DNA of 64,000 nucleotides from the NCBI GenBank assembly GCA_964471535.1, contig CAYYHA010000001.1:6285-70284 (forward strand), in the 5' to 3' direction. Both the position numbers and the translations under genes were made by a program. Positions within the stretch are counted from its first letter, which is position 1. Each line of letters starts with the position of its first letter. The notes beneath the pieces were generated by a model. It saw only the letters and a list, made by a program, of their open reading frames with translations, ran no database searches and was not told the origin of the DNA. Shown piece after piece: positions 6,071-62,710 of this stretch. Origin of the DNA: an uncultured Myxococcia bacterium (lineage in GTDB: Bacteria > Myxococcota > Myxococcia > SLRQ01).

Positions 6071-6838
6071 CTACGTCTCCTGCTGCGTCGGACGAAGCAG
6101 CAGGTCGTGGTACTCGACGTGGGGCGGCGCGGAGAGCACGTGGACGAGGGCGTCGGCGAGGTCCTCGGGGGTGAGGACCGGGTAGCGCCCGTACGCGGCC
6201 GCCTCCGCTTCCAAAGAGCCGTGGTACTTCCGTGCGAACTCGGTGCGGACGAAGCCGGGGGAGAGGGCGGTGACGCGGATACCACTTCCGAGGCTGCGCA
6301 GCTCCCGGCGAAGCGCCTCGGTGAGCGCTCGCACGGCGAACTTGGTCGCGGCGTAGACGCCGCTGCCGTCGGGGACACGGTGGCCAGCCATCGAGGAGAC
6401 GTGCACCACGTGGCCGGCATCGCCGCGGCGGCGCATGTCGGCGACGGCCTCCCGTGTGGCGATGCACAGCGCGAGCACGTTCACTTCGAGCATCTCCCGC
6501 CAAGCGTCGGCGGGCCCCTCGGTGAGGGGCGCCGCGCGTCCGAGCCCGGCATTGTTCACGAGCACGTCGACTCCACCCCACTCGGCACGGATCCGATCGA
6601 AGACGGCCAGGATCTCCTCCTCGCGGCGCAGGTCGGCGCCGATGGCGTAGAACTCACCGCCTGCCGCCGTGATGGCCTCGCCGAGCGATTCGAGGCGGTC
6701 GGTGCGCCGCGCGCACCCTGCCACCAGCAGTCCCTCCTGCGCCAGACGCAGCGCCATGGCGCGGCCGATGCCACTCGAGGCACCGGTGACGAGGGCCACC
6801 TTCCCCCTCCAACGATCCATCCCGGAAGCCGTTGCCAT
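6071..6838 (-). CDS. Short-chain dehydrogenase/reductase (SDR), NAD(P)-dependent
   Basis: It has the glycine-rich motif GKVALVTGASSGIGRA, NNAG and the catalytic YxxxK (YAATKFAV). Confidence 0.9.
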   Translation of the reverse strand: MATASGMDRWRGKVALVTGASSGIGRAMALRLAQEGLLVAGCARRTDRLESLGEAITAAGGEFYAIGADLRREEEILAVFDRIRAEWGGVDVLVNNAGLGRAAPLTEGPADAWREMLEVNVLALCIATREAVADMRRRGDAGHVVHVSSMAGHRVPDGSGVYAATKFAVRALTEALRRELRSLGSGIRVTALSPGFVRTEFARKYHGSLEAEAAAYGRYPVLTPEDLADALVHVLSAPPHVEYHDLLLRPTQQET

Positions 6839-6937
6839 GCGCCGAGCCTAGACCGGCGCCTCGCCACACCCAAGCCGCGCCGCAGGTGAAGGGGGCCCTT
6901 TGGGCCAACAGGGTGACGGGACTACCATGGGGCGGCG

Positions 6938-8029
6938 ATGGATCTTCGCACCGCTGCGCACCGTGCCGTCCACCGCTTCGTCAACGGCCTCGACTGGTGG
7001 CTCCGGGATCCCTCGGAGATCGTCGACCGAACCCCGCACGAGATCGTCTTCCGCCAGGGAAAGCTCAATGTGCGTCACTACCTGGTCGAGGAAGACGAGG
7101 ACGAGTGGGAGCTGGGGCAAGGGGCGCTGCGCGTCGAGCGGCACACGCAGCGCTATCCGGTGCTCCTCGTCCCACCCCTGATGATCAAGCCCTTCGTCTA
7201 TGACCTGGCCCCTGGGCGCAGCTACGTGGAGGTGCTCCTGCGCGAAGGTTTCGAGGTGTACCTGGTCGACTTTGGCGAGCCGGACCGGGCCGACGAGTAC
7301 GTGAGCCTCGACCACTACGTGCTGGAGTGGATGCCTGCCGCGATCGATGCCACGATCCGGCACCACGGCGGCGGGGGGATCGGCCTCGTCGGCTACTGCA
7401 TGGGCGGCCTCTTCGGGCTCATGCATACCAGCGTCAACGAGGACGAGCGCGTCAAGGGGATCGTCACCATCGGTGCGCCCATCGACAGCCACGAGATGGG
7501 GCTGCTCGCCTTCGTCGTGAAGCACGCACACGGTCAGGTCGACTTCTTGGCGCGTCGCCTCGGCAACATCCCCGGACGTCTCTCGAGCACCGCGTTCAAG
7601 ATGATGGCGCCGGTGAAGAATGCGACCCGCTACGCCGACCTGTTCATCAACATGTGGAACGACGAGTACGTCAACCGCTTCGATGCGCTCGGCCAGTGGA
7701 CCGAGAACTTCATCGACTACCCGGGAACGGCGTTTCGAGAGTTCCTGGAGAAGTTCCTCAAGGAGAATCAGCTCAAGGACGGCCGCATGACCTTCCGCGG
7801 GAAGCCGGCAGACCTCTCCTGGATTCGTGCGCCCATCCTCGCCTTCGCCGGCAAGACGGACCAGGTGGTGCCGGTGAAAGCGGCGGCGGGCATCCTCGAC
7901 GTGGTGGGGAGCGAGGTGAAGGAGCTTCGCGTGGTCCCCGGTGGCCACATGGGGGTCTTCGCAGGGAGCCACGCACCCCGGGCCGTGTGGGAGCCCAGTG
8001 CGCGCTTCCTGGCCCGCCACATGGTGTGA
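6938..8029 (+). CDS. phaC: Class III-type poly(3-hydroxyalkanoate) synthase catalytic subunit PhaC (alpha/beta hydrolase)
   Basis: It is about 360 aa with the lipase-box-like G-Y-C-M-G-G, which carries Cys rather than Ser, and the conserved blocks VYLVDFGEPDRAD, NIPGRL..., FREFLEKF and PGGHMGVFAGS. These are colinear with the class III PhaC of Allochromatium as I remember it. Confidence 0.8.
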   Translation: MDLRTAAHRAVHRFVNGLDWWLRDPSEIVDRTPHEIVFRQGKLNVRHYLVEEDEDEWELGQGALRVERHTQRYPVLLVPPLMIKPFVYDLAPGRSYVEVLLREGFEVYLVDFGEPDRADEYVSLDHYVLEWMPAAIDATIRHHGGGGIGLVGYCMGGLFGLMHTSVNEDERVKGIVTIGAPIDSHEMGLLAFVVKHAHGQVDFLARRLGNIPGRLSSTAFKMMAPVKNATRYADLFINMWNDEYVNRFDALGQWTENFIDYPGTAFREFLEKFLKENQLKDGRMTFRGKPADLSWIRAPILAFAGKTDQVVPVKAAAGILDVVGSEVKELRVVPGGHMGVFAGSHAPRAVWEPSARFLARHMV

Positions 8030-8116
8030 CCCGTCCGGTCGGCCTCCGCGCGAGGTGGGGTGCCGAGCTCCGAGCTCGGGCTGTGCGGCCCTGCAGGCGC
8101 GGCACTTCCCGCGCCT

Positions 8117-10528
8117 CTAGCCTCCCGGATTGATCACCACGATCGATTGCAGGTCGAGGCCCGCTGGATAGCCGTAGCTCACGTACTCGTCGTAGCCGTA
8201 GACGGTGACGCCGAAGGGCTGGTCGCTGGAGATGCTGTGGGTGCCGTCCGTGACGGAGACGCGGCCAACCTCGTAGCTGCTGCTTCCCGCCTGGATCCAG
8301 GTGGTGTTCACTGGAGAGCCGTCGAGAAGGATCGTCGCGCCCGTGGGGCGGACGACGTTCACGTAGTCCTGCGCGATCGTGGAGGGGGTGACGAAGCTGT
8401 AGCGGCGCTTGTACTGCGCGGTGGGCGCGGCGAGGATCATCGTGGGATCGCCCATCGTGCTGCCCGTGGCGTCCTGTCCCACCATGAACTGCCCCACCAG
8501 GATGGGGTGGTCGATGTCCTGGCTCTGCACCACGAAGTCCATCGCCGTCTGCAGCTCCACCCACTCGCCGGCGTTGAGGGTGACGTTGGCGTGGACGGAC
8601 GGCGGCGAAAAGCTCAGCACCGTTCCATCTGCCGCAGCCACGATCCGCCACAGGTCCCCCACGGCCGTGTTGCCGCCGGGGGGCGGCTGGGTCCGCGCCG
8701 CGACGTAGTGGTTGCCCCAAGTGGCGAAGGGCGGCATCTGCTGCTCCATGTGGTCGCAGGCCCACTTGTCGTAGGGGAGCAGGCGGCAGTCCGAACCGGC
8801 GTAGACGGCGACGGGCTTGTCGCTGGTGATGATGGTGCCCGTCAGATCGCTCCCTGGATACTCGGTGTGTGTGTCGGTGAGCGTTTCCAGGTTGAAGAAG
8901 CCACAGCTGAGCGGGCGGGTGAAGGTTTGCGCCGCCGGCGTCCCGTAGCGATCGCTGGCGAGCTGCAGCACTTCGAACTGCGCCAACGAGACGGTGACCT
9001 GCTGCCCCGGTGCGATCTGGCTGGGAAGGGATCCACCCGGTGCGATGGCGCCGCGTGCCACGATGGTCACCTGGGTCGTCCCCGGTGCGGTGGCGACGAT
9101 CGTGACGAAGGAGGGGAGGTCGAAGTCGACCTGCTGCCCGTCGCTGCACTCCCGGTGCAAGCTCATGTGGGGGACGGTCATGGCGAGGTAGGTGCTCGCT
9201 GGCGAGGCCGCCGGGTCGCCGAGGATGTGGGCCGGCAGGAGCAGGGAGGCATCGTTGCTGTACGAGAACGTGCCTCCATCCGCCGAGAGGATCGGGTTGA
9301 ACTGGTAGACGGTGACCGGCACCGTGCTGGTCAGCCGGTAGGCGGTCGCGCCCTTCTGGGTCTGACTGCGCCCGTTGGCGTCCACCGCGGGGAGCGCGTT
9401 CCAGGGCAGGCGCAGCTCCTGCAAGTTGCCGCCTGGGATGCTCGCCGACGCCACGGTGCTCCCGCTCGCGTCCTCGACGGTGATCTGTGCGGTGGTCCCC
9501 AGGTGGGGATTGCCGATCACCAGCGCATAGTCGTCGTGGAAGATCGGGTCGATCTGCGTGTTCGAGAGCGCCACCGGCCAGTACTCACAACCGATGTAGG
9601 ACCGCGTGTTCACCGCCTCGTCGCAGAGCGAGACGCAGGCCCCCTGGCGGCAGGTTGCCGCCTGCGCCGCGCAGTCCTCGACGGGGTCATAGCCGGTGCC
9701 ACTCGCGTTGCACTCCTCGACCGCTTCCCCGTTGCAGATGCGTGTCCCCGGCGTGCAGCTGAAGGCCACGCACTCACCTAGGTTGCCATCGCAGGTCGCG
9801 TTGGCGCCGCACGGCTCGGTCTGCCAGGCGGTGCCGGTGGCGTTGCAGACCTCGCGGGTGTTCTGATCGGCGCAGCGGGCCTCCCCCGGGCTGCAGAGCT
9901 GACAGGTTCCCTCGATGCAGGTGCCGGCGCCGCAGTCGCTCGGGCTGCCCCACCCGCTCCCGTCCGCCGCGCAGGTCTCCACCGCGTTGCCGTTGCAACG
10001 GGTGGTGCCCGGGGCGCAGGCGGCACAGGCGCCCGCCACGCAGACCGGTGTGGAATCGGCGCAGGGCGTCTCGATCCATTGGCTTCCGTCGTCCGAGCAG
10101 GTCGCAAGGCCCGTTGCGTCGCTGTTGCACTGCACGGTGCCGGGCGTACAGATGCCCATGGGGCCGCCGTCCTCCGAGCCGCCGTCGGCGGGGCTCCCGC
10201 CATCGGAGCCGCCGTCGGGACCGCCCGCACTTTCACAGGCACCGGTGAGCACGTTGCAGGTCTCTCCCGGCCCGCAGTCGCTGTCGCGCATGCACACCGA
10301 GGGCGCCTCGCAGACCCCGCCGTTGCACACGGTTCCGGAGGGGCAGTCGCTGTCGAAGAGGCAGGTACCGGTGGCGCCGTCGCTTCCACCGCCTCCACCC
10401 CCATCCCGTCGGCCGCCACTGTCCGGCTCGGGGCAGGCCACCATCGAGAGAGCCAGCAGCGCGCCCACGATCGGCAGCGCCCGGCGCGCCCTCCACTTTG
10501 GTCCCGTCTGGTCCGGCGTACGGTGCAT
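8117..10528 (-). CDS. Secreted lipoprotein with four tandem ~45-aa six-cysteine repeats (Myxococcota-type putative metal-binding Cys-rich repeat) and a large C-terminal beta-rich domain
   Basis: It has a signal plus lipobox (LALSMVAC) and a Gly-rich linker. The repeats have the form CxPGTxxCNGxAVExCxxDGSGWxxxxDCxAGTCxxGxCxxC. The C-terminal region is roughly 550 aa. Confidence 0.8.
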   Translation of the reverse strand: MHRTPDQTGPKWRARRALPIVGALLALSMVACPEPDSGGRRDGGGGGGSDGATGTCLFDSDCPSGTVCNGGVCEAPSVCMRDSDCGPGETCNVLTGACESAGGPDGGSDGGSPADGGSEDGGPMGICTPGTVQCNSDATGLATCSDDGSQWIETPCADSTPVCVAGACAACAPGTTRCNGNAVETCAADGSGWGSPSDCGAGTCIEGTCQLCSPGEARCADQNTREVCNATGTAWQTEPCGANATCDGNLGECVAFSCTPGTRICNGEAVEECNASGTGYDPVEDCAAQAATCRQGACVSLCDEAVNTRSYIGCEYWPVALSNTQIDPIFHDDYALVIGNPHLGTTAQITVEDASGSTVASASIPGGNLQELRLPWNALPAVDANGRSQTQKGATAYRLTSTVPVTVYQFNPILSADGGTFSYSNDASLLLPAHILGDPAASPASTYLAMTVPHMSLHRECSDGQQVDFDLPSFVTIVATAPGTTQVTIVARGAIAPGGSLPSQIAPGQQVTVSLAQFEVLQLASDRYGTPAAQTFTRPLSCGFFNLETLTDTHTEYPGSDLTGTIITSDKPVAVYAGSDCRLLPYDKWACDHMEQQMPPFATWGNHYVAARTQPPPGGNTAVGDLWRIVAAADGTVLSFSPPSVHANVTLNAGEWVELQTAMDFVVQSQDIDHPILVGQFMVGQDATGSTMGDPTMILAAPTAQYKRRYSFVTPSTIAQDYVNVVRPTGATILLDGSPVNTTWIQAGSSSYEVGRVSVTDGTHSISSDQPFGVTVYGYDEYVSYGYPAGLDLQSIVVINPGG

Positions 10529-10779
10529 GGGCTCCCTCTCCTTCCCAGCATAGCCCCCGGCAGGGCGTCGCGGAGAGTAGCCGCTCGAGAGCGCCTGTGG
10601 GTCCCGCCGGCGCTTTCGTAAGCCTACATCGACCTACATGGCCTAGAAGGGCCCCGGGCGCGGGCGCGCCTTCGGGGCGCCGACACCTAGGGCCTCCCCT
10701 CGGTTCCTATGCTCCGCCGCCCGGGCTCGGTGGGGCTCCACTTCTCTCGGCCGCGCGCCTTGGCGTACCGTCCTCGCCC

Positions 10780-12954
10780 GTGGACCCCGCCCGACGACCG
10801 GCGCGCTTCGCCGCGCTCCTTCTCCTTGCGCTAGCCGTGGCGGTCGCGGCACCGGCGCTCGTGGCGGCGCCCGTGGCGCTGTGGGGAGACTCGGGCGACG
10901 CGTGGCAAAACCTGTGGAACGGCTGGTGGTTCGCCGAAGCCGTCGCCTCGGGGCACTCGCCGTTCTACACCCATCACCTCTGGTACCCCGACGGCGTCAG
11001 CCTGTGGCTGCAGACCTTCGGCCCCCTGAACGCGGCGGCGACGGCGCTCCTCTCGCGCCTCCTCCCGGGCTTCCTCGGCTACGACCTGGTGGTCCTGGGT
11101 CACCTCTTCTTCGGTGCCTTCGCCGCATGGTGGCTCTGCGACCGCCTCCTCGGGGAGGCCGGCCTCGCCCGTGGCCCGGTGCGGCTGCTCGCCGCCCTGG
11201 CTGGCGCCGTCGTCTTCGGCTTCTCCCCCTACGTCTGGGCCCACCTCTCGGTGCACCTGCACCTCTCCTCCATCGGTTTCCTGGCCCTCTTCGCGGGAAC
11301 GCTCCCCCGGGCGGCCGATCCCAAGGCGGGATGGAGACCCCTCCTCGGTGCGGGCCTGCTGGCGCTCTGCCTGGGGCTGTGCGGCTGGTACCTGGTGCTC
11401 GACGCGGCGCTCCTGGGCGCGGTGTTCCTCTTACTGGCCCTCGCCCGCGCCCCACAGAGCGGCCTGCGCCCCGCCCTGCGCCTCGCCGGCGCCGGCCTCC
11501 TCGCGGGTCTCTTGCTCCTGCCTCTCCTCGTCCCCACCCTCCTGGCCCTCCGCGAGCCGGTCGAAGGGGCCCACGACCCCGTCACCTTCTCCACCGACCT
11601 CCTCTCCCTCTGGCTTCCCACCCCGAAGCAGTGGCTGGGCCGCTACTTCCTCGAGACGACGACGCGCTTCACCGGCAACGCCGGGGAGAACGGCGGATAC
11701 CTGGGCTACCTGCCCCTGGCCGCCACGGGCCTGGCCCTGTGGCGCCGGCGTACGCCCGCGCTGGTGGGCCTGGGGCTCGCGGGACTCGCCGGGGTGGTGC
11801 TGTCCTTTGGTCCCCACCCGCACCTTGCCGGGGCGATCCACCGGGAGGTTCTGCTGCCCTATGCGGCGCTCGCCCGGATGCTCCCCTTCCTGGGGCAGCT
11901 CGGCTGTCCGGTGCGCCTGGGGCTCCTCGGCCACCTGGCCCTCGCCGCGGGGACCGCGCTGGGCGTCTCGGTCCTCCTCGAGGCGTTGTCCCGCCGGCGC
12001 ACCGGCCCAGAGGATCCGTCCCTTCGTCCCCCCTGGCGCCTGTGGGCCGCGGGTCTCCTCGCACTGGCCCTCCTCCTCGTGGAGTACGCCCCGGCGGGAC
12101 AGCCGACCCACCGCTATCCCCGCCCCGCTTTTCTCGAGGCCCTCGGGCAGGTTCCGCCGACGGGCGCGATCGCCGATCTCACCGGCTGGACGCACCCCCT
12201 CTACAACCAGATGCTCCACGGGTGGCCCATCGTGCACGGCTACGTCTCGCGGCGGCCGCTGCGCCTGGTGCGGCGCCTGATGGCCGACCCGGTGCTGGGG
12301 CCCCTCTACGAAGAGGCGCTCTACGGCCGGGCGCCGCGGCAGCGTGCGCTCACGCGCATCGACGGCCCCATCGACTTCGACTGGGGCGAGGCGCCGCCGG
12401 CCCCCGGGGTTCAGGCCGACTTCGAGGCCGAGTGGGTGGGGCAGCTTCGCATCGACCGTCCGGGCCGCTACGCCTTCCGCCTGGGAAGCGACGACGACGC
12501 GGTCCTCTACCTCGATGGCCGGCGCGTCGTCGACAACTCGGGGGCACACCCCTTCGTCACCCGGGAGGGTGAGGTCACGCTCGCAGGCCCGCCCACCCTG
12601 CGCCTCACCTTTCGTGACCGCGGCGGCGCGGCGGCCGTGCGGCTGTGGTGGCGGCCACCTGGCGCCGCGGACTGGTCGATCGTGCCCCGCGAGGCCCTGC
12701 ACACCCGGGCGGGTGCGCCGGGCCTCGAAGGGGTCTACACCCACCGTGCCGCCCGGCCGCGCCTCCGTGGCGAGGCCGCGGCGCGCCACCTGCGCGCGCG
12801 CTGGGGCATCGCCTACCTCATCGCCTACGAGGGGCGATCCGCGGCGCTGTCCACCCTCGGCCTCGAGCGGGTGGGGGCCGCCCAGGGCATCGAGCTGTGG
12901 CAGGTTCCTGGGCCCGCGTCGCGGCCGGATCCCGCCCCCGCCGGCGATCGTTGA
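10780..12954 (+). CDS. Polytopic inner-membrane protein (glycosyltransferase-like, many TM helices) with C-terminal PA14 domain
   Basis: The putative GTG start at 10780 gives VDPARRPARFAALLLLALAVAVAAP; the ORF-track start at 10498 overlaps the divergent gene and is unlikely. There are at least 10 hydrophobic helices. The C-terminus (DFDWGEAPPAPGVQADFEAEWVGQLRIDRPGRYAFRLGSDDDAVLYLDGRRVVDN) matches the PA14 carbohydrate-binding fold signature. Confidence 0.7.
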   Translation: MDPARRPARFAALLLLALAVAVAAPALVAAPVALWGDSGDAWQNLWNGWWFAEAVASGHSPFYTHHLWYPDGVSLWLQTFGPLNAAATALLSRLLPGFLGYDLVVLGHLFFGAFAAWWLCDRLLGEAGLARGPVRLLAALAGAVVFGFSPYVWAHLSVHLHLSSIGFLALFAGTLPRAADPKAGWRPLLGAGLLALCLGLCGWYLVLDAALLGAVFLLLALARAPQSGLRPALRLAGAGLLAGLLLLPLLVPTLLALREPVEGAHDPVTFSTDLLSLWLPTPKQWLGRYFLETTTRFTGNAGENGGYLGYLPLAATGLALWRRRTPALVGLGLAGLAGVVLSFGPHPHLAGAIHREVLLPYAALARMLPFLGQLGCPVRLGLLGHLALAAGTALGVSVLLEALSRRRTGPEDPSLRPPWRLWAAGLLALALLLVEYAPAGQPTHRYPRPAFLEALGQVPPTGAIADLTGWTHPLYNQMLHGWPIVHGYVSRRPLRLVRRLMADPVLGPLYEEALYGRAPRQRALTRIDGPIDFDWGEAPPAPGVQADFEAEWVGQLRIDRPGRYAFRLGSDDDAVLYLDGRRVVDNSGAHPFVTREGEVTLAGPPTLRLTFRDRGGAAAVRLWWRPPGAADWSIVPREALHTRAGAPGLEGVYTHRAARPRLRGEAAARHLRARWGIAYLIAYEGRSAALSTLGLERVGAAQGIELWQVPGPASRPDPAPAGDR

Positions 12955-12985
12955 CACCCGCGGTGGGGCTGGGCAGGAAGGAACC

Positions 12986-13609
12986 ATGAAGCTCGTCAGC
13001 AACTCCTTCGCCCATGAGGCCCCCATCCCCGAGCGGTACGCGATGGGCAAGCCCGATCCCGAGACCCACGCGACCTTCTCGGACAACCTCAATCCCCACC
13101 TCGCCTGGTCCGAGGTCCCCGAGGGCACGCGCTCCTTCGCGCTGGTGGTGGTGGATCCCGACGCACCCTCGGTGCCCGACGACGTGAACAAGGAGGGTCG
13201 CACCATCCCCGCCGACCTGCCCCGCGTGGACTTCCACCACTGGGCGCTCGTGGACATCCCCGCCGATGTGCGCGAGATCGCCGAGGGCAGCCATTCGAAG
13301 GGGGTGACCCCGAAGGGCAAGCCGGCCGACGCCGCGCCGGTGGGCCGCCACGGGATCAACGACTACACGATGTGGTTCGAGGGCGATCCGGAGATGGGCG
13401 GCGACTACTACGGCTACGATGGCCCCTTCCCCCCGTGGAACGACTCCATCGTGCACCACTACCACTTCATCCTCTACGCCCTCGACGTGGAGCGCCTGCC
13501 GGTGGAGGGCCGCTTCACCGGGGCCGATCTGCGCAAGGCGGTCGCGGGGCACGTACTCGCCGAGGCCACCCTCACCGGCACCTACGCGATCCATCCCGCT
13601 CTGCGCTGA
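12986..13609 (+). CDS. YbhB/YbcL family protein (PEBP/Raf-kinase-inhibitor-like)
   Basis: The ATG at 12986 is preceded by AGGAAGGAA. The sequence MKLVSNSFAHEAPIPERYAMGK...VVDPDAPS...FHHW...HHYHFILYALD is the typical bacterial PEBP signature. Confidence 0.85.
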   Translation: MKLVSNSFAHEAPIPERYAMGKPDPETHATFSDNLNPHLAWSEVPEGTRSFALVVVDPDAPSVPDDVNKEGRTIPADLPRVDFHHWALVDIPADVREIAEGSHSKGVTPKGKPADAAPVGRHGINDYTMWFEGDPEMGGDYYGYDGPFPPWNDSIVHHYHFILYALDVERLPVEGRFTGADLRKAVAGHVLAEATLTGTYAIHPALR

Positions 13610-26549: not shown

Positions 26550-26559
26550 ATCGCCCGCG

Positions 26560-27945
26560 ATGGCACGAGAAACGAACGACGCCCGAGCCGCGCTGCCCTC
26601 GGCTCCCGAGCAGCCCTTCGAGTACCCCCTGAAGACGCCCTTCGAGGAGCCCGATTGGCGGCGCATTCCCGCCTATCGCGCGGTGAGCCGTGAGGAGTGG
26701 GAGAGCGCGCGGTGGCAGCGCCGGCACACGGTCAAGAACCTGAAAGAGCTGAAGGAGACGCTCGGCGAGCTTTTGCCCGAGGACCTTCTCGAGAGCATCG
26801 CGGCGGACCAAGCGCGCATGGCGACCATGTCCATCCTCGTCCCCCCGCAGATGCTCAATACGATGAACTTCGACGACCTGTGGAACGACCCGGTGCGTCG
26901 CTACATGCTTCCGGCCCTCGCCGACAGGCATCCCGAGTGGCCGAGTCATCCCAAGGCCGAGCGCGACAGTCTGCACGAGGCCGACATGTGGGCGGTCGAG
27001 GGACTCACCCACCGCTACCCCACGAAGGTCCTCGCCGAGATGCTGCCCACCTGTCCGCAATATTGCGGCCATTGCACGCGCATGGATCTCGTGGGGAACG
27101 ACGTGCCGCAGGTGAAGAAGACGCGCTTCACCCTGAAGCCGGCGAGTCGCTACGAGGCGATGCTCGAGTACATCCGCAACACGCCGATGATCCGCGACGT
27201 CGTCGTCTCGGGGGGCGACGTGGCCAACCTGCCCATCGATCGCCTGGTCGACTTCGTCTCGCGACTGATGGAGATCCCGCACATTCGCGACATCCGGCTC
27301 GCTTCCAAGGGGATGGCCGGCATCCCACAGCACTTCCTGCAGGACGAGGTGCTGCGTGGCCTCGAGACGCTCGCCAAGAAGGCGCGCGAACACGACGTCG
27401 ACATCGCGCTGCACACGCACATCAATGCGGCGCAGCAAGTGACGCCGCTGGTGGCGAAGGTGGCGGAGAAGCTCCTCGACATGGGCTTCAGGGACGTGCG
27501 CAACCAGGGGGTGCTCCTGCGGGGAACGAACACCACGCCCGAGCAGCTCCTCGAGCTGTGCTTCCGCCTCCTCGATGACGGCAACATCATGCCGTACTAC
27601 TTCTACATGTGCGACATGATCCCCAACTCGGAGCACTGGCGGCTCGCCGTGCACGAGGCACAGAAGCTGCAGCACGACATCATGGGCTATCTGCCCGGCT
27701 ACGCGACGCCGCGTCTTTTGTGCGATGTGCCCTTCGTGGGCAAGCGCTGGGTGCACCAGACCGATGCCTACGACCGCACCCGTGGCATCTCCTACTGGAC
27801 GAAGAACTACCGCACCCTGGTAGAGCGCGACGATCCCGAGGCGCTCACGCGGCAGTACCCCTACTACGATCCGGTCTACACCCTTCCCGAGGAAGGGCAG
27901 GCCTACTGGCGAGAGAGAGTGCAGGAGGCCGGCACCGGGGCATGA
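26560..27945 (+). CDS. KamA-family radical SAM aminomutase (lysine 2,3-aminomutase-like)
   Basis: The CPQYCGHCTR radical SAM CxxxCxxC cluster is present, and the sequence is colinear with lysine 2,3-aminomutase (PLP-binding region ...SGGD... and C-terminal domain). At 461 aa it is of KamA length, not the shorter EpmB. Confidence 0.85.
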   Translation: MARETNDARAALPSAPEQPFEYPLKTPFEEPDWRRIPAYRAVSREEWESARWQRRHTVKNLKELKETLGELLPEDLLESIAADQARMATMSILVPPQMLNTMNFDDLWNDPVRRYMLPALADRHPEWPSHPKAERDSLHEADMWAVEGLTHRYPTKVLAEMLPTCPQYCGHCTRMDLVGNDVPQVKKTRFTLKPASRYEAMLEYIRNTPMIRDVVVSGGDVANLPIDRLVDFVSRLMEIPHIRDIRLASKGMAGIPQHFLQDEVLRGLETLAKKAREHDVDIALHTHINAAQQVTPLVAKVAEKLLDMGFRDVRNQGVLLRGTNTTPEQLLELCFRLLDDGNIMPYYFYMCDMIPNSEHWRLAVHEAQKLQHDIMGYLPGYATPRLLCDVPFVGKRWVHQTDAYDRTRGISYWTKNYRTLVERDDPEALTRQYPYYDPVYTLPEEGQAYWRERVQEAGTGA

Positions 27946-51198: not shown

Positions 51199-52644
51199 CT
51201 ATGCGGCTTTGGCCGCCTCCTTCAGCTCGGCGGCGAGCTGTTGCAGCACGGCCTTCGCGTCCCCAAAGATCATCATGCAGTTGTCCCGCTCGAAGAGCTC
51301 GTTCTTGATGCCAGCGAAGCCCGGGGAGAGGGAGCGCTTGATGACGAAGACGGTGCGCGCCTCGTGCACCTTGAGGATCGGCATCCCGTAGATGGGCGAG
51401 CCCGGTGTGGTCTCCGCGGCCGGGTTCACCACGTCGTTCGCGCCCACCACGATCACCACGTCGGTGTTCTTGAACTCAGGGTTGATCTGGTCCATCTCGA
51501 CCAGCTTCTCGTAGGGCACGTCCGCCTCGGCGAGGAGCACGTTCATGTGGCCGGGCATGCGGCCGGCCACCGGATGGATGGCGTACTTCACCGAGCAGCC
51601 CCGCGCTTCGAGGAGGTCCCCGAGCTCCTTGCAGGCGTGCTGCGCCTGCGCCACGGCAAGCCCGTACCCGGGAACGATGATGCAGCTCTCGGCCGCCTCG
51701 AGGACCATGGCCGCTTCCTCGGGGCCGCAGCTGCGCACGTTCTTGTAGTCCCGCGCGTCCTCGCTGACGCCCGATCCGCCCTCGCTGCCGAAGCCGCCGA
51801 AGAGCACGTTGGCGAGCGAGCGGTTCATGGCGACGCACATGATCTGGGTCAGGATGAATCCGGCGCAGCCGACCAGCGAGCCGGCGATGATGAGCACATT
51901 GTTGTGGAGCACGAAGCCCGTGGCGGCCGCAGCGAGGCCGGAGTAGCTGTTGAGCAGCGAAATCACCACCGGCATGTCGGCGCCGCCGATGGGGATGACC
52001 GCCATGATTCCCAGAATCAGAGAAGCGGCAGCGACTCCAAGGACGAGGTAGGTGTTCACCTCGAGTTCGGTGAACCCGAACACGCCGTAGATACCCAGGC
52101 CGAGGCTGCCGAGGAGGAGGACGGCGTTGATGAAATGGCGGCCCGGGAGCAGGATGGGGTTTCCGCTGATCTTCCCGGCGAGCTTCCCATAGGCCACCAC
52201 GCTCCCGGAGAAGGTCACGCCGCCAATCAGGACCGAGAGGATGAGCGTGACCGCCGGAGCCGCGCCCAGAGCACCGGCCGGTGAGACGTTCCGTCCGGGC
52301 TCGACCACCTCACCGAAGAAAACGGAGAGCGCCACCAGCGCCGAAGCGAGTCCGCCCGAGCCGTTGAAGAGCGCGACCATCTCGGGCATCTCGGTCATCT
52401 CCACCTTCACGGCCGCGACGGCGCCGATGAGTCCGCCCACGGCGAAGCCAATGACGATCCAGCGGTAGTCGATGGAGCCGAGTTCCACGAAGGTGGCGAC
52501 CACCGCAATGAGCATGGCGAGCGCGGAGAGGGCATTGCCCCGGCGCGCGGTGCGCACGTGCGTCATTCGCTTCAGCCCGAGGATGAAGAGCACACTCGAG
52601 ATGAGGTAGGCGAGGGCGACGATGGTTTCGCGGCTGCTCATCAC
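51199..52644 (-). CDS. pntB: NAD(P) transhydrogenase subunit beta
   Basis: A polytopic N-terminus is followed by the NADP(H)-binding dIII domain (...GYGLAVAQAQH...GANDVVNPAA...). Confidence 0.95.
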   Translation of the reverse strand: MMSSRETIVALAYLISSVLFILGLKRMTHVRTARRGNALSALAMLIAVVATFVELGSIDYRWIVIGFAVGGLIGAVAAVKVEMTEMPEMVALFNGSGGLASALVALSVFFGEVVEPGRNVSPAGALGAAPAVTLILSVLIGGVTFSGSVVAYGKLAGKISGNPILLPGRHFINAVLLLGSLGLGIYGVFGFTELEVNTYLVLGVAAASLILGIMAVIPIGGADMPVVISLLNSYSGLAAAATGFVLHNNVLIIAGSLVGCAGFILTQIMCVAMNRSLANVLFGGFGSEGGSGVSEDARDYKNVRSCGPEEAAMVLEAAESCIIVPGYGLAVAQAQHACKELGDLLEARGCSVKYAIHPVAGRMPGHMNVLLAEADVPYEKLVEMDQINPEFKNTDVVIVVGANDVVNPAAETTPGSPIYGMPILKVHEARTVFVIKRSLSPGFAGIKNELFERDNCMMIFGDAKAVLQQLAAELKEAAKAA

Positions 52645-52934
52645 TTCGCCTTCTTCTTGGTGCCGAACATCCCCAGCATGCGATCGGTGACGAGATAGCC
52701 GCCCACCACGTTGATGGTGGCGGCCGCTACCGCGCAGGCGCCGAGAATGTTCGCGACGGTGGGGGCGCCGGTGGTCGCAGCGCTGATCGACCCCACGAGC
52801 GTGATCCCGCTGATGGCGTTGGCCCCGCTCATCAGCGGCGTGTGCAGGGTGGGCGGGACCTTGTTGATCACCTCGAAGCCGACGAAGCCGGCGAGCACGA
52901 GCACGTAGATGCTGACGATGAGCGCGCCTGTCAT
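52641..52934 (-). CDS. NAD(P) transhydrogenase alpha subunit, membrane part 2 (PntAB small subunit)
   Basis: The 97-aa hydrophobic protein lies between the alpha-1 and beta subunits, with overlapping stop and start codons on both sides. Confidence 0.9.
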   Translation of the reverse strand: MTGALIVSIYVLVLAGFVGFEVINKVPPTLHTPLMSGANAISGITLVGSISAATTGAPTVANILGACAVAAATINVVGGYLVTDRMLGMFGTKKKAK

Positions 52935-54067
52935 GACTCGAGCGCCTCCCGGGTGGGGCCGTGGCGTACCTCGCCCTGGTGGGTGAGCACCGCGGCGGTG
53001 AGGATGTCGTTCTCGAGATCGATCCGAAGCTGCCCCTCGTCGAGCAGCTCGAAGACGAGTTCCTGCACGTTGCGTGCGTAGAGCATGCTGGCGTCGGCAG
53101 GGAGGGTCGCAGGCAGGTTCGGATGGCCCACGATCGTCACACCTTCGTGGACGATGGTCTTCCCGTATTCGGAGACTTCGCAGTTGCCGCCGGCTTCCAC
53201 CGCCATGTCCACGATCACCGAGCCCGGGCGCATGCTCTCGACCATCGCCCGGGTCAGCAGCTTTGGCGCCGGTCGGCCGGGAACGAGGGCGGTGGTGATC
53301 ACCACATCGGCGTGCCGCACGTGCTCGGCGACGATGGCCTGCTGCTTGGCGAGGAACTCCGGGGTGATCTCCTTGGCGTAGCCGCCCGTCTCGGCGCTCG
53401 ACTCCTGCATCTCGGGAAGGTCGATGAACTTCGCCCCGAGGGACTCCACCTGCTCCTTCACCTCGGCGCGGATGTCGCTGACCTCCACCACCGCTCCGAG
53501 GCGGCGCGCCGTGGCGATGGCCTGCAGCCCCGCCACCCCCGCACCCATGATGACGACCCGCGCCGGCTTCACGGTCCCGGCCGCCGTCATGAGGAGGGGG
53601 AAGTACTTCGGCAGGTGGTTCGCAGCGACGAGCACTGCCTTGTAGCCGCCGATGCTCGCCTGGGAGGAGAGCGCATCCATCTTCTGCGCCCGCGTGATCC
53701 GCGGAACGAGCTCCATCGCGATCGCCGTGATCTTCCGGTCACGAAGCGTGCGCACCACATCCAGGTTTTTGTGCGGTGCCAGGAAGCCGCACACCACCGC
53801 GCCTTCCCGCAGCCCGGCGAGCTCCTCGGGAAGCGGCACCCGCACCTTCAGCAAGAGGTCGGTCTCGGGCAGGGCGCTCCGGACGTCGTCCACGAGACGT
53901 GCCCCGGCATCGGCATAGGCCTCGTCGGAGATGAAGGCCCCGGCGCCGGCGCCCCGCTCGACAGCCACGGCGAGCCCCTTCTCCGAGAGCTTGGCCACCG
54001 TCTCAGGGGTCGCCGCCACACGGGTCTCACCCTCGGCCCGCTCCTTAGGTACCAACGCTTGCAGCAC
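52931..54067 (-). CDS. NAD(P) transhydrogenase alpha subunit part 1 (alanine-dehydrogenase-like dI domain)
   Basis: VIMGAGVAGLQAIATARRLGA (Rossmann GxGxxG) and the AlaDH/PNT N-terminal and C-terminal domains are present. Confidence 0.9.
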   Translation of the reverse strand: MLQALVPKERAEGETRVAATPETVAKLSEKGLAVAVERGAGAGAFISDEAYADAGARLVDDVRSALPETDLLLKVRVPLPEELAGLREGAVVCGFLAPHKNLDVVRTLRDRKITAIAMELVPRITRAQKMDALSSQASIGGYKAVLVAANHLPKYFPLLMTAAGTVKPARVVIMGAGVAGLQAIATARRLGAVVEVSDIRAEVKEQVESLGAKFIDLPEMQESSAETGGYAKEITPEFLAKQQAIVAEHVRHADVVITTALVPGRPAPKLLTRAMVESMRPGSVIVDMAVEAGGNCEVSEYGKTIVHEGVTIVGHPNLPATLPADASMLYARNVQELVFELLDEGQLRIDLENDILTAAVLTHQGEVRHGPTREALES

Positions 54068-54095
54068 GGTGCCTTCCCTCCGCAGTGACCTCCGC

Positions 54096-54557
54096 TCACG
54101 CGAAGTAGCGGAAGACGACCTCCGCCACCATCGCCGGCTTCTCGCTGCCCTCGACCTCGGTGGTGCAGACCATCACCGCCTGCACGCCACCCTTCACCTC
54201 TTCGACGGTTTTCACCTCCACACCCAGGCGAATCTTCGAGCCCACGGGGACGGGCGCAGGGAAGCGCACCTTGTTCAGTCCATAGTTGATCGCCATCTTG
54301 ATGCCCTGCACGTCCAGCACCTGGTGGTAGAGGTGAGGGACGAGGGAGAGCGTCAGATAGCCATGGGCGATGGTGGTCCCGAAGGGGGATTCCTTGGCTG
54401 CCCGCTCGGGATCGACGTGGATCCACTGGTGGTCGAGGGTGGCGTCGGCGAAGGCGTTGACGCGATCCTGATCCACCACCATCCACTCCGAATGGCCAAG
54501 GTGCTTGCCGGCCAGTGCCTTGACTTCCTCGATGCCGTTTACCGTTGTCGCTGCCAT
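54096..54557 (-). CDS. MaoC-like (R)-specific enoyl-CoA hydratase, hot-dog fold
   Basis: The DxNPxH-type motif appears as DHQWIHVDPERAAKESPFGTTIAHG, typical of MaoC/PhaJ dehydratases. Confidence 0.85.
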   Translation of the reverse strand: MAATTVNGIEEVKALAGKHLGHSEWMVVDQDRVNAFADATLDHQWIHVDPERAAKESPFGTTIAHGYLTLSLVPHLYHQVLDVQGIKMAINYGLNKVRFPAPVPVGSKIRLGVEVKTVEEVKGGVQAVMVCTTEVEGSEKPAMVAEVVFRYFA

Positions 54558-54724
54558 CTGCCGCTCCTCCTCGCTGGGGTGTCGGGGGACGGAAGGGACG
54601 GCAACGGAGCGGTGAAGTCAACCCTAGGAGGAGCCGGTGGCGGCGCAGCGCGCCGCGCCCTCGCTGCGCCGCCCTCGCCACGATGCCCTCGCCACGATGC
54701 CCTCAGCGCGTTAGCGTAGAGGCA

Positions 54725-55114
54725 ATGCGTCTTTTCCACCTCCTGATGGCCGCGTTCTTCCTCTCCTGCGCGGCCCTCCAATGGAACGATCCGGATCCGG
54801 TGCCGTGGATGAGCGTCTACACGGTGGCCGCGGTGCTCACCCTGACGGCGCAGCGTCTCCCCAAGGGGCCCCTGCTCTGCACCCTGGTTGCGGCGACCGC
54901 GCTCTCCTGGGCGGCCATGATCGCCCCCGGAGCGCGGGGAGCGAACTGGGCCGAGGTCTTCGGCGCCGTCTCCATGAAGACCGAAGCGGTGGAGGTCGCC
55001 CGCGAGACGGCGGGCTTGCTCATCGTCGCGGCGTGGCTCTTTGGGCGCGCCGTGGCGCTGCGCCGCCGCCGGGCCTTGCGATCAGCCGGGGGCGCGGCGG
55101 AGGGACTCGTGTGA
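54725..55114 (+). CDS. Hypothetical small membrane protein (4 predicted TM helices)
   Basis: The internal ATG at 54725 gives MRLFHLLMAAFFLSCAALQWNDPDPVPWMSVY... The ORF-track 5' extension from 54545 is Arg-rich and is rejected. Confidence 0.5.
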   Translation: MRLFHLLMAAFFLSCAALQWNDPDPVPWMSVYTVAAVLTLTAQRLPKGPLLCTLVAATALSWAAMIAPGARGANWAEVFGAVSMKTEAVEVARETAGLLIVAAWLFGRAVALRRRRALRSAGGAAEGLV

Positions 55115-55278
55115 TCGACCGGGGTGAGCGGCTGCGGACGACTCTCTTCATCTGGATCGTCCTTGCGGTGGTGGGCTTCTTTGCCTGGAAACGCTACCAG
55201 GCCAAGCGGCCTCGGCCGGATCCCGGCGAGGCCCGCCGGGCAGCGCTACCGGCGGCGCCACCGGCCAAGGGCGAATAG
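55111..55278 (+). CDS. Possible 55-aa single-TM membrane protein
   Basis: The GTG overlaps the upstream stop as GTGA, giving VIDRGERLRTTLFIWIVLAVVGFFAWKRYQAKRP... It overlaps the 3' end of convergent speE by about 30 nt. This call is speculative. Confidence 0.2.
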   Translation: MIDRGERLRTTLFIWIVLAVVGFFAWKRYQAKRPRPDPGEARRAALPAAPPAKGE

Positions 55279-56142
55279 CGCCGGGTGCACCTCCGCGGAG
55301 TAGAAGCGGCACCCCGTCAGGGCTCCGGCCCGCTCCCGATCCACCTCCGCCGGGTCGTCGCCGAAGGTGGCCAGCACCAGGTTCCACAGCCCCCCCGGAT
55401 AGACGTCGCTCCAGCACACGTAGGGCTCCGCCCGCCCGAAGGCGGCAGCCAGGCCCGTGGTCGCACGTTCGAGCACCTCGGGCAGGTACCAGAAGCTGCC
55501 CCCTTGCACCGCGGCGGCGCCGCCGGGGCGGGTGTGCTCCGCCACCAGCGCATAGAAGGCATCCGAGAAGAGGACCTCACCGGGCCCCACCGGGTCGGTG
55601 CTGTCCACCACGATGAGATCGTAGGGCTCGCTCTGCCCCTTCAGGAAAGTGAGCCCATCCTCGTGGTGCAGATGGAAGCGTGGATCGTCGTCGAGGGGCC
55701 CCGACCCATCGGGCCGCACCCAGAGGGTGGGGAAGAAGTCCCGTGCCGCCCGCGTCACCGCCGGGTCGATGTCGACCAGATCGACGTGAGTCACACCGGG
55801 GTGGCGAAGCGCCTCGCGCGCCGCGCCCCCATCGCCGCCGCCGATCACCAGCACCCGTTTCGGACCCTGGGATGCCCCGCGCCGGCAGAGGCCCGGATGC
55901 ACGAGGAGCTCGTGGTAGCAGGCCTCGTCCGACTCGGCGACCTGCACCGCCTCGTCGAGGACCATCATGCGGCCGTGGCTCTCGGTCTCGAGGACCCGAA
56001 GCCGCTGGTAGGGGGTCTGTTCGTCGCGAAGCACGCGGCGGACGTGCACCGACCAGAGCAGCGCCCCCGGCTGCCAGCTGTCGGTGTACCAGTCGCCCGA
56101 GGGCGAGAGCGCATCGGGCAGGATCTCGATGGGCTTGGCCAT
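55246..56142 (-). CDS. speE: Spermidine synthase (polyamine aminopropyltransferase)
   Basis: VLVIGGGDGGAAREALRH, the DLVDIDP block and the VVDSTDPVGPGE motif are present, with the tetramerisation N-terminus. Confidence 0.9.
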   Translation of the reverse strand: MAKPIEILPDALSPSGDWYTDSWQPGALLWSVHVRRVLRDEQTPYQRLRVLETESHGRMMVLDEAVQVAESDEACYHELLVHPGLCRRGASQGPKRVLVIGGGDGGAAREALRHPGVTHVDLVDIDPAVTRAARDFFPTLWVRPDGSGPLDDDPRFHLHHEDGLTFLKGQSEPYDLIVVDSTDPVGPGEVLFSDAFYALVAEHTRPGGAAAVQGGSFWYLPEVLERATTGLAAAFGRAEPYVCWSDVYPGGLWNLVLATFGDDPAEVDRERAGALTGCRFYSAEVHPALFALGRWRRR

Positions 56143-56166
56143 GGCCGGTTGCAACGCGTTGGGGCT

Positions 56167-56565
56167 TCAGGCGACGCCCGCGACGGCGGGTGCGACCCGC
56201 AGCGGCAGGCGGCCCCGTGCCTCCTCCCGGTACTCCACCTCGGTGGCGCCGAAGCCCTCCTCGAGGAGGCCGGCGAGCCGGGCGAGCTCCGTGGTCTGGC
56301 TGCAGGTGAAGAGATCGAGGGCCGCGTAGCCGTACTCCGGCCAGGTGTGGATGGACAGGTGGCTCTCCGCGATGACGATCACGCCACTGACGCCCCACGG
56401 GGAGAAGGTGTGGAAGGTCTCCTCGACGATGGTGCATTTCAGCTCGACCGCCGTGTCGTGGAGCAGCTTCTGGATGTACGCGGTGTCCTTCAGGGTCTCG
56501 GGGTCGCAACCGTAGAGGTCCACGAGGGCGTGTCGGCCGAGGCTGTGCATCTGGAGGTCCTCCAT
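56167..56565 (-). CDS. speD: S-adenosylmethionine decarboxylase proenzyme, small bacterial type (SpeH/SpeD class 1A)
   Basis: GRHALVDLYGCDPETL and the ESHLSIHTWPE self-cleavage site are present. The start is at 56565 (MEDLQMH) or, more likely, 56550 (MHSLGRH...). Confidence 0.85.
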   Translation of the reverse strand: MEDLQMHSLGRHALVDLYGCDPETLKDTAYIQKLLHDTAVELKCTIVEETFHTFSPWGVSGVIVIAESHLSIHTWPEYGYAALDLFTCSQTTELARLAGLLEEGFGATEVEYREEARGRLPLRVAPAVAGVA

Positions 56566-56779
56566 CGTGGGGCCTGCCGGGCAGGACCCGCTTCGAGGTC
56601 GAGACGACGTGGCGCCGCCAGAGTCGGAGAAAGGAGCGCGCTTTTTCGGACGGATGCCGCCCTGTGTCAAGAAGCCGATGGGCCGTATGACCGGCTCGCC
56701 GAGGCGCGCGCTCGGCAACTTCGTGCCGATGGGGGAAGCGACGGGTCGGGTGCGCGAGGTGTGCTCGCAAGCGGCTGCG

Positions 56780-57682
56780 CTAGGAGATCAGGTACCGCTC
56801 GCCCCCATCGCAGAGCACGGTCACCACGCGGTGACCTGGGCCGAGCCTCTGGGCGAAGTGGAGCGCCACGTGTACGTTCGCACCCGAGGAGGGACCCACG
56901 AGCAGGCCCTCCTCCTTCGCGAGGCGCTCGGCCATGCGATGGGCTTCGGTGTCGGTGACGGTGACCACCTCGTCGATGAGCGAGCGGTCGAGCACCGGGG
57001 GGACGAAGCCGGCGCCGAGCCCCTGGATCCCGTGGAGACCGGGGGAACCTCCAGAGAGCACCGCCGAGCGGGCCGGTTCCACGGCGACCAGACGGGCCGT
57101 CGACCCCTGCTTCCGCAGGTAGCGCCCCACGCCGGTGAAGGTCCCCCCGGTTCCGATGCCCGCGACGAAGACGTCGAGCCGCCCCTCGAGATCCTCGAAG
57201 ATCTCGGGACCCGTGGTCTCCTCGTGGGCCCGGGGGTTCGCCGGGTTCTCGAACTGCTGCGGCATGAAGGCGCCCTCCCGCCGGGCGATGGCGCGGGCCT
57301 CCTCCACGGCGCCCTGCATCCCCTCGAGCGCGCGGGTGAGCACGAGCTCGGCCCCGTAGGCAGCGAGCAGGTAGCGCCGGCCCACGCTCATGTCGTCGGG
57401 CATCACCAGCTTGCAGCGATAGCCGCGTACCGCCGCGATCATCGCCAGGGCGATCCCCGTGTTGCCGCTGGTGGGCTCGACCACGGTCATGCCCGGCTTC
57501 AGCCGCCCGTCGGCCTCGGCCTCGCGGATCATCGCCAGGGCGGCGCGGTCCTTGACGCTCCCACTGGGGTTGGCCAGCTCGCACTTCGCATAGACCTCCG
57601 CCATGTCCTCCTCCACCACGCGGGTGAGGCGGACGAGCGGTGTGCCTCCCACCAGCCCGGGGGCGCCCGTGTCGATGCGCAT
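56780..57682 (-). CDS. cysK: Cysteine synthase A (O-acetylserine sulfhydrylase), PLP-dependent
   Basis: PSGSVKDR is the PLP-binding Lys context. TSGNTGIALA and GIGTGGTFTGVG are the glycine-rich loops. Confidence 0.9.
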   Translation of the reverse strand: MRIDTGAPGLVGGTPLVRLTRVVEEDMAEVYAKCELANPSGSVKDRAALAMIREAEADGRLKPGMTVVEPTSGNTGIALAMIAAVRGYRCKLVMPDDMSVGRRYLLAAYGAELVLTRALEGMQGAVEEARAIARREGAFMPQQFENPANPRAHEETTGPEIFEDLEGRLDVFVAGIGTGGTFTGVGRYLRKQGSTARLVAVEPARSAVLSGGSPGLHGIQGLGAGFVPPVLDRSLIDEVVTVTDTEAHRMAERLAKEEGLLVGPSSGANVHVALHFAQRLGPGHRVVTVLCDGGERYLIS

Positions 57683-57997
57683 GGGAGGACCCTACCCCGC
57701 CTCCCACGGTGGGCGGAATACACTGGGGTGTGAGCGTGACCTGGAGTCACGCTGTGGCGCGGTGGTGGCGTGATCGAGCGCACGGGAGGCGCACCCGGTT
57801 CGCGAGATCGCGCCGCAAGGGGTCGAGCGCCGGCGGAGGCGGCGTCCCAGACGCGCGCGGCGCCCTTGGCACCGTCCTTGAAGAACCAGGCGACGAGTGC
57901 GTCGGAGCGCCAGGTGGCCACCGCCTCCGAGCGGCACGAAGCCAAAACGGCACGAACGCCCAACGATCCGAACCCAAGACGACGAGGTCCACCCGCC

Positions 57998-61474: not shown

Positions 61475-61739
61475 TGCCGTCAGACCGGGCTCGGGGCGGA
61501 CTCGATGGCGAGGCATCGACTGCCTCCGGTCCCGTGCGTTGACAAGCCCAAGGGGCGCTTTACCTTCGCGGCTGAGTCGAGGCGGACGAGGATGCGCCGG
61601 TCGTTCGGGCGAGCGGTCCCGGGCCGGTCGGATGGCGCGGGCGCTCGGGACAGGGGCGTTCGTGCGGGCGGCCGTAGCGGCGGCGCATTCCCGCCGGCCG
61701 CACCGGTACACCTGTATCCACTGAAAGGAGGAGATTGCG

Positions 61740-62195: not shown

Positions 62196-62208
62196 TGGGA
62201 AGGAGGTT

Positions 62209-62607: not shown

Positions 62608-62656
62608 TCCGAGGGCTTCATGCGGCGGACCGTCTTCGCTGGCGGTCCGCGACGAC

Positions 62657-62694
62657 GGGCCCGCGCCCCTGGGGGTGCGGGCCCTTCCTTGTGG
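62657..62694 (+). terminator. Putative intrinsic terminator after the second hsp20 gene
   Basis: The GC-rich inverted repeat GGGCCCGC-(loop)-GCGGGCCC is followed by TTCCTTGT. A second hairpin (GCGGACCG...CGGTCCGC) lies just upstream at about 62631-62660. Confidence 0.35.
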
Positions 62695-62710
62695 TACAAC
62701 GGGGCTGTCC

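Follow-up and report, generated by a model that had tools for sequence, protein, structure and literature searches.

The gene considered here encodes a short PhaC-like protein and lies in a 64,000-nucleotide stretch of DNA (the window) from an uncultured Myxococcia bacterium (contig CAYYHA010000001.1). PhaC is the polyhydroxyalkanoate (PHA) synthase, and the window protein is a member of the PhaC superfamily; its sequence places it in a distinct, uncharacterised clade of that superfamily, with no local partner gene, as a variant within a known superfamily. We put at about one in two the probability that it is a stand-alone enzyme that uses a cysteine to form an acyl-enzyme from acyl thioesters or esters, that is, a lipid or acyl-CoA ester enzyme and not a polyhydroxybutyrate (PHB) polymerase. 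We regard such an enzyme as the probable product because the protein sits on a separate branch, has a changed substrate pocket and has no partner gene. The gene, its predicted catalytic residues and the pocket positions that matter are the following, with PhaC residues in C. necator numbering:

6938-8029, plus strand: PhaC-superfamily alpha/beta-hydrolase open reading frame (ORF), 363 aa plus stop, from the ORF translation, its codon-position GC content, Abhydrolase_1 and TIGR01836
7184-7186, plus strand: Ile83, at the position of PhaC Asn248; aliphatic clade-wide
7271-7273, plus strand: Phe112, at the position of PhaC Trp277 in the alignment
7391-7408, plus strand: lipase-box-like motif G152-Y-C154-M-G-G157, translating to GYCMGG, with Cys154 (7397-7399) as the predicted nucleophile
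7757-7759, plus strand: Leu274, at the position of PhaC Tyr445 (Tyr412 in Chromobacterium)
7859-7861, plus strand: Asp308, predicted catalytic Asp, followed by Gln309 (TDQ at 7856-7864); aligns with D480
7946-7948, plus strand: His337, predicted catalytic His, in a GGH motif (GGHM at 7940-7951); aligns with H508

This ORF is a real gene, clearly coding because the GC content of its third codon positions (GC3) is 0.88 against 0.40 at the second (GC2), in a window of about 70% GC. NCBI lists an identical protein under the name 'MAG: alpha/beta fold hydrolase [Deltaproteobacteria bacterium]' (MAG, metagenome-assembled genome). Pfam finds generic alpha/beta-hydrolase domains only (Abhydrolase_1, E 1e-15) and no PhaC_N domain (PF07167) in the 363 residues. 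The best NCBIfam model is that of class III PhaC, TIGR01836 (E 7e-64), which aligns end to end over model positions 57-347 of 350 with 216 bits, a score below its curated cutoff of 365.3. Second comes PRK07868, the model of a 994-aa acyl-CoA synthetase architecture, which with its N-terminal part matches residues 32-358 of the window protein (125 bits against a cutoff of 925), and the class I/II PhaC models TIGR01838 (94 against 622) and TIGR01839 (61 against 855) rank after it. Significant sequence matches in the PDB are class I PhaC catalytic domains only. An AlphaFold2 model of the protein (pTM 0.78) has a confident core and a low-confidence cap at residues 187-259, and its top 15 Foldseek matches in the PDB are PhaCs, ahead of lipases. 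The best of them, the class I structures of C. necator (5HZ2/5T6O), Chromobacterium (5XAV/6K3C) and A. caviae (9KNJ), match with E-values of 1e-17 to 7e-20 and a TM-score of about 0.7 on the query, and have the cap and the triad geometry in common with the model. Identity to them is 18-22%, and the window protein lacks their N-terminal domain of about 200 aa, being 363 aa long against the roughly 560-600 aa of class I/II synthases with PhaC_N. By hidden Markov model (HMM) and by fold alike, its closest characterised relatives are PHA synthases. The first-pass annotation of this DNA, made from the letters alone, had called the protein a class-III-like PhaC and had considered lipases or esterases as the other family in which its nearest characterised homologues might be found; because NCBIfam and Foldseek both give PHA synthases in that place, its assignment to the superfamily stands.

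The likeness to class III goes beyond the score. Proteins of this class (TIGR01836; Rhizobium, H. mediterranei PhaC/PhaC3, Arthrospira) are of similar length (about 360 aa), with the same core and cap, the GxCxGG box, the Cys nucleophile, the Cys-Asp-His triad and equivalents of W425, N448, D351, S260 and Y292. The window protein nevertheless differs from them in its sub-threshold score, in its low identity (27-31%) to the PhaE-linked Rhizobium and haloarchaeal references, in its separate clade, in having no adjacent phaE and in the replacement of N248, W277, D428, Y445 and H481; moreover, its relatives are never found in pha operons. As for class IV (PhaC plus PhaR, Bacillus), we met no phaRBC-type cluster, and neither Pfam nor NCBIfam detected PhaR in the window.

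We then turn to the family to which the protein belongs. A homologue search returned 562 proteins at E<=1e-5, and the best 120 of these are 375-440 aa long, mostly 50-62% identical to the window protein, and belong to uncultured Myxococcota, Binatia, Schekmanbacteria, Terriglobales and similar groups; NCBI labels these proteins 'alpha/beta fold hydrolase'. Among 1.84 billion cluster representatives, 310 matched at E<=1e-30 and 2186 at E<=1e-10, with identity falling smoothly from 58% to about 26%. All 33 family members sampled missed the TIGR01836 cutoff (best E-value 3.9e-76). The only cultured carrier that we found is Pseudohalioglobus sediminis, whose protein is 34% identical and has the box GWCMGG. 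For the phylogeny, reference PhaCs were taken from annotated plasmids: a Rhizobium class III phaC with adjacent phaE, a Natrinema phaC, a Sphingomonas class I phaC, a Novosphingobium phaE with its PhaC-like pair, a Legionella PhaC-like gene beside phbB, and, on pHME505 of H. mediterranei, a phaC for a 566-aa protein that follows a USP gene and by size, plasmid and neighbour is probably PhaC3. In a neighbour-joining tree built from 67 sequences with 317 columns and 100 bootstraps, the family falls in a clade of 60 that stands apart from the class III and class I references with 97% support, and the core family itself has 96%. A larger tree of 148 sequences (288 columns, 200 bootstraps), built from 124 library representatives and a subset of the earlier references and loci, again groups the window protein in a clade of 58-60 members (84/81% support) that contains none of the verified PhaCs. 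One of the references has features of its own: on Novosphingobium aromaticivorans pNL2 (L092:2589-4038) an unusually short annotated PhaE of 121 aa lies directly upstream of the PhaC-like gene, whose product NCBI names only 'alpha/beta fold hydrolase', which keeps N248 but has no Tyr at the Y445 position, and which is followed by a GNAT acetyltransferase.

At the active site the family is conserved. G152, Y153, C154, G156, G157, D308 and H337 are invariant in an alignment of 33 members, as are W254, N277 and D183, and C154, D308 and H337 align with C319, D480 and H508 of C. necator PhaC; Cys154-Asp308-His337 is thus predicted to be a PhaC-type catalytic triad. To compare the pocket, we mapped onto the family the 40 residues listed as conserved among the C. 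necator, Chromobacterium and Arthrospira (class III) PhaCs (PMC10215190, Table 1), with the numbering anchored on C319 in a PDB-derived C. necator fragment. The family keeps P239, D254, L255, S260, G269, Y292, G317, C319, G321 and G322, and also W425, N448, D464, D480, G507 and H508. Five other positions are changed. N248, present in 6 of the 7 verified PhaCs, is V or I in 39/39 core members (I83 in the window protein); W277, present in 7/7, is F in 38/39 (F112); D428, present in 6/7, is Q or N in 39/39 (N257); Y445, present in 7/7, is M, V or L in 39/39 (L274); and H481, present in 7/7, is Q, K or R in 39/39 (Q309). In Chromobacterium PhaC, Y412 (equivalent to Y445) has been proposed to hydrogen-bond the 3-hydroxyl of the substrate, N220 (N248) lines 'site B', and H448 (H481) bonds lid residues (PMC7214940). 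The window pocket departs from that of the class I structures at Y412/Y445, N220/N248 and W249/W277. Sorted by these positions, the sequences with an aliphatic residue at 83 and no Tyr at 274 number 59, which matches the supported clade in size, and the canonical group with both N and Y has W277 in 51 of 51 and includes every solved PhaC. The His after the catalytic Asp (H481) separated the groups cleanly when only the seven references were compared; we downgraded it as a diagnostic marker because it proved variable among otherwise canonical representatives. In A. vinosum PhaC, W, Y and the DH pair are probably canonical. Judged by curated score, phylogeny and pocket residues, the window protein is not a class III or class IV PhaC subunit, and it is in this part, the class, that the earlier naming did not hold.

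The composition of the clade points in the same direction. The Cys nucleophile is invariant in the core family, and in the whole 59-member group the nucleophile is Cys in 43 and Ser in 16. Such switching is more typical of hydrolases or transferases than of PHA polymerases. The Ser members include a Nocardia protein with the box GWSLGG and long fusions with AMP-binding domains, about 1000 aa in all (L086, L088, L089 and P0260), which match PRK07868, a model that we assume to be of the Rv1683 type; the combination of Ser and AMP-binding fusion is taken to be how Mycobacterium Rv1683/BCG1721 is built. That protein is associated with lipid droplets, and its triacylglycerol (TAG) lipase activity is lost in an S150A mutant (PMC10699116). 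It is to the N-terminal lipase domain of this architecture that residues 32-358 of the window protein correspond in the PRK07868 alignment, and the Ser-box fusions fall in the same supported clade, with the same aliphatic-83/non-Tyr-274 pattern. The two types differ in that Rv1683-type proteins have a Ser box (GxSxG; S150 in BCG1721) and the AMP-binding fusion, whereas the window protein has Cys154, stands alone and is about 24-32% identical to them. Two further observations concern the nucleophile and domain make-up of relatives. P0173, P0237, P0254 and P0268 have a canonical pocket (N, W, F, D, Y; alignment A2) and yet a Ser nucleophile, so Cys/Ser switching also occurs, rarely, on the canonical side. 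P0128 (819 aa; 43% identity), a Cys-type clade member with its PhaC-like domain at 475-816, bears an N-terminal Beta-lactamase-family domain (PF00144), perhaps a family VIII esterase or a penicillin-binding-protein-like domain.

A Cys nucleophile is also used by depolymerases of the PhaZa1 type, and the window protein might be an intracellular polyester depolymerase or thiolytic enzyme like PhaZa1 of C. necator, removing units from PHA or related esters. We consider this highly improbable. Both are alpha/beta-hydrolases, and there is weak C-terminal similarity: PHB_depo_C (E 3e-4) is matched below its cutoff, and TIGR01849 (the PhaZa1-type model; the Pfam family is PF06850) is matched at E<=1e-5 by 12 of the 33 family members. 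For the window protein, however, TIGR01849 gives 24 bits against a cutoff of 300.75, tiny beside the 216 bits of the PhaC model; size and N-terminal half are different; no solved or annotated depolymerase is among the top Foldseek structures; and no PHA synthase, phasin or other PHA gene lies nearby in the window.

The statement of the first-pass annotation that no partner gene lies near the PhaC-like gene is borne out over the whole 64 kb. Pfam detected no PhaE, PhaR, phasin, thiolase or PHA depolymerase in the credible ORFs of the window, and NCBIfam no PhaE, PhaR or phasin among the window ORFs that lack a Pfam match. A phmmer search with the Rhizobium and Novosphingobium PhaE, of limited sensitivity with two probes, found none in the window or in 90 loci of relatives, and about 95 relatives' loci were likewise free of PhaE, PhaR, phasin and other PHA genes; gene calls in these loci come partly from our own ORF heuristics and are unreliable in some, for example L001 and L004. 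Clustering of the flanking ORFs of 90 loci yielded no universal conserved neighbour, the top clusters being antisense artefacts or lineage synteny. Our literature search found no papers on PHA in Binatota. In the window, the genes that could have been connected with PHA are these:

6071-6838, minus strand: classical short-chain dehydrogenase/reductase (SDR) oxidoreductase, 255 aa (adh_short, E 2e-53, Pfam)
6839-6937, no strand: intergenic region of 99 bp (sequence) between the divergent SDR and PhaC-like genes
54096-54557/54617, minus strand: MaoC-like dehydratase (MaoC_dehydratas, E 7e-28), 46 kb from the PhaC-like gene and adjoining pntAB

The interval 6071-8029 thus holds two divergent genes, the SDR on the minus strand and the G-Y-C-M-G-G hydrolase on the plus strand, just as had been described, and the PhaC-like gene is apparently monocistronic. 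The suggestion that the SDR might be an acetoacetyl-CoA reductase (PhaB) fared worse, and we rejected it: the protein is 28% identical to Legionella PhbB over 141 aa, its best NCBIfam match is a generic SDR model (NF038213, 186 against a cutoff of 300), and its adjacency is conserved only in the nearest, 83%-identical relative (L004/L005). It is 33% identical to the DECR-like SDRs that stand beside other family members, which are of a different type. On this evidence the SDR is a neighbour of the PhaC-like gene, and a functional partnership would seem unsupported here. The distant MaoC dehydratase is real as well. We rejected it as a linked PhaJ, at 46 kb and beside pntAB; its best NCBIfam matches are PaaZ/HadAB-like and sub-threshold. 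It stands in a minus-strand series at 51199-57691 of pntB, pntA and the dehydratase, then spermidine synthase, S-adenosylmethionine (AdoMet) decarboxylase and a PLP-dependent enzyme, a neighbourhood of redox and polyamine metabolism, not PHA.

Where the relatives' loci are informative, the context is lipid or acyl-CoA related in every case, which is suggestive only. Patatin genes flank L081, L082, L083 and L054; in L016, L028 and L056 the PhaC-like gene forms an operon of overlapping genes with those for an SDR and an acyl-CoA dehydrogenase; an HSL-type esterase follows a small DUF3303 ORF in L026, L034, L039 and L071; and MMPL transporters adjoin five loci. In P. sediminis (L080:5115-14542, NZ_VTUX01000003.1), the Cys-type PhaC-like gene is part of a co-directional six-gene neutral-lipid cluster with the order AMP-binding acyl-CoA synthetase, thiolase-like protein, WS/DGAT wax-ester synthase, PhaC-like protein, carboxylesterase, and DUF3336 plus patatin lipase. 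An orthologous acyl-CoA synthetase is found in L049. As a cultured organism, P. sediminis is one in which the function of the clade could be tested.

All this has to be weighed against the main alternative, that the protein is a genuine divergent PHA synthase, working either as a homodimer on its own or together with a partner subunit whose gene lies elsewhere. We hold this to be rather unlikely, and several of our own results speak for it and against a lipid or acyl-CoA ester enzyme. The strongest single similarity of the protein is to class III PhaC, PHA synthases are its best matches by HMM and fold, and JGI names family members 'polyhydroxyalkanoate synthase'. The invariant Cys is a hallmark of PHA synthases and unusual for lipases, and it comes with the Cys-Asp-His triad, the GxCxGG box and the equivalents of W425, N448 and D351. 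The pocket changes are no proof of lost polymerase activity, because C. necator Y445F is reported only to alter specificity (PMC7214940) and H481 varies, on wider sampling, even in otherwise canonical representatives. Nor does a missing neighbour decide the matter: class III PhaC can be active alone, as shown for the Arthrospira rPhaC homodimer and, as cited there, C. vinosum PhaC without PhaE (PMC10215190), the orphan phaC1 and phaC3 of H. mediterranei function with an unlinked PhaE (PMC2939530), and our partner search covered the 64-kb window of a MAG and about 95 relatives' loci rather than a whole genome. Lipid and acyl-CoA genes are abundant in these phyla, and they are clear neighbours only in the outlying subclades and in a minority of core-family loci, most of which are uninformative; the window itself offers the SDR alone. 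The acyl-CoA dehydrogenase and SDR partners in L016, L028 and L056 would fit a supply of medium-chain 3-hydroxyacyl-CoA monomers for PHA equally, and a MaoC dehydratase is present in the window. Finally, the phylogeny with characterised PhaCs, which the first-pass annotation had proposed and which sets the clade apart from them, consists of neighbour-joining trees with few verified references and no class IV (Bacillus), Chromatiales or cyanobacterial sequences, and support inside the clade is weak. What stands against a PHA synthase is that the protein is sub-threshold for every PhaC class model, that the clade excludes all verified PhaCs, that W277, Y445 and N248 are missing, though conserved in the verified PhaCs compared, that no PHA gene was found at about 95 loci, and that Ser-nucleophile members and lipase-type relatives lie inside the clade. 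Moreover, H. mediterranei PhaC2, a short paralog with degraded motifs, makes no PHA even with PhaE (PMC2939530).

A lipid or acyl-CoA ester enzyme is therefore the reading that we prefer, because of the pocket changes, the composition of the clade and the gene context of the relatives. Of the three possibilities initially left side by side (a PhaC acting alone, one with an unlinked partner, or a fold repurposed as an acyltransferase or hydrolase), the last fits the evidence best. In such an enzyme, His337 would activate Cys154, which would take an acyl group from an acyl thioester (acyl-CoA) or an ester to form an acyl-S-enzyme. Asp308 would then activate a hydroxyl acceptor, which may be an alcohol, a lipid hydroxyl or water, and this acceptor would resolve the acyl-S-enzyme, so that the net reaction would be ester synthesis, transfer or hydrolysis. 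Its substrates are more likely to be fatty-acyl or neutral-lipid compounds than (R)-3-hydroxybutyryl-CoA for polymerisation. The enzyme probably acts as a homodimer, as PhaC does, because the Trp equivalent to W425, which we take to lie at the dimer interface, is conserved.

One part of the clade suggests another arrangement. In 25 subgroup-2 loci (of the Binatia/Acidobacteriota type) the PhaC-like gene is followed, after 10-120 bp, by a conserved DUF3303 ORF. Its product, about 110 aa long, combines a core of about 95 well-conserved residues with a tail rich in Arg and Lys; apart from the following examples, there are 22 further loci:

L099:7282-7614, same strand as the PhaC-like gene: DUF3303 ORF
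L100:7187-7516, same strand as the PhaC-like gene: DUF3303 ORF
L037:11132-11479, same strand as the PhaC-like gene: DUF3303 ORF

The DUF3303 protein could be a new partner subunit, and the window protein would then belong to a new two-component enzyme with a partner other than PhaE or PhaR, unlinked or lost in the window genome. We give this a slim chance for the window protein: the presence of the ORF in the 25 loci speaks for it, but no DUF3303 was detected anywhere in the window even at E<=10, and the domain is locally absent from subgroup 1, to which the window gene and its 83%-identical relative belong. Subgroup-2 members (for example P0084, P0101, P0111 and P0118) also end in a C-terminal tail of 30-70 residues in which Arg, Lys and Ala are frequent, seen at about columns 418-486 of alignment A1; these tails resemble the histone-like ones of granule- or nucleoid-binding proteins such as PhaM and PhaF, and the window protein has no such tail.

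A bolder proposal is that the clade, widespread in uncultured Myxococcota, Binatia and Acidobacteriota, is a new class of partner-independent (in one subgroup perhaps DUF3303-dependent) Cys ester or polyester synthases, for example an alpha/beta-hydrolase-fold neutral-lipid (wax ester or TAG) synthase or remodelling enzyme, or a 'class V' PHA synthase with a pocket re-shaped for non-canonical monomers. We regard it as speculative and distinctly unlikely. The identity of the clade matters in any case. Annotation pipelines and genome-mining surveys count any short PhaC-like match as a class III PHA synthase, and BLAST-based surveys report class III PhaC in 23 phyla (PMC8312272). The clade described here is widespread and probably over-called as 'PHA synthase'; if it is not a PHA polymerase, the PHA-storage potential of uncultured Myxococcota, Binatia, Acidobacteriota and related groups is overestimated. 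Such false positives could be recognised by simple markers, namely an aliphatic residue in place of N248, Phe in place of W277 and the absence of Tyr at Y445. If, on the other hand, its members are active synthases that have an altered pocket and lack a partner subunit, they would be new biocatalysts of compact size. Since the clade links PHA synthases to lipid-droplet lipases, it should also be useful for studying how Cys and Ser chemistry diverged in one fold.

As for the rest of the window, a scan of 6700-8300 gave no match to a sigma-70-like promoter or terminator consensus. Upstream of the PhaC-like gene lie genes for an S41 peptidase, a TPR protein, a glyoxalase-fold protein, a small membrane protein and the SDR, and downstream are surface-protein genes with IgGFc-binding and PA14 domains. 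One of the latter, at 10498-12954 on the plus strand (PA14 domain), overlaps an ORF at 11431-13359 on the minus strand without a family match, both with coding-like GC3; the minus-strand ORF is probably spurious, because the syntenic relative L004 calls the plus-strand PA14 gene alone. At 26551-27945 (plus strand) there is a KamA-family radical SAM protein that resembles lysine 2,3-aminomutase (TIGR00238, 176 against a cutoff of 199); it is below every equivalog cutoff and has no Pfam match at E<=1e-4. An ORF at 62597-64000 (plus strand), which runs past the window end, has weak similarity to multi-haem cytochromes (c7, MtrC-like), and immediately before it, at 61725-62607 on the plus strand, is a tandem pair of HSP20 small heat-shock genes.

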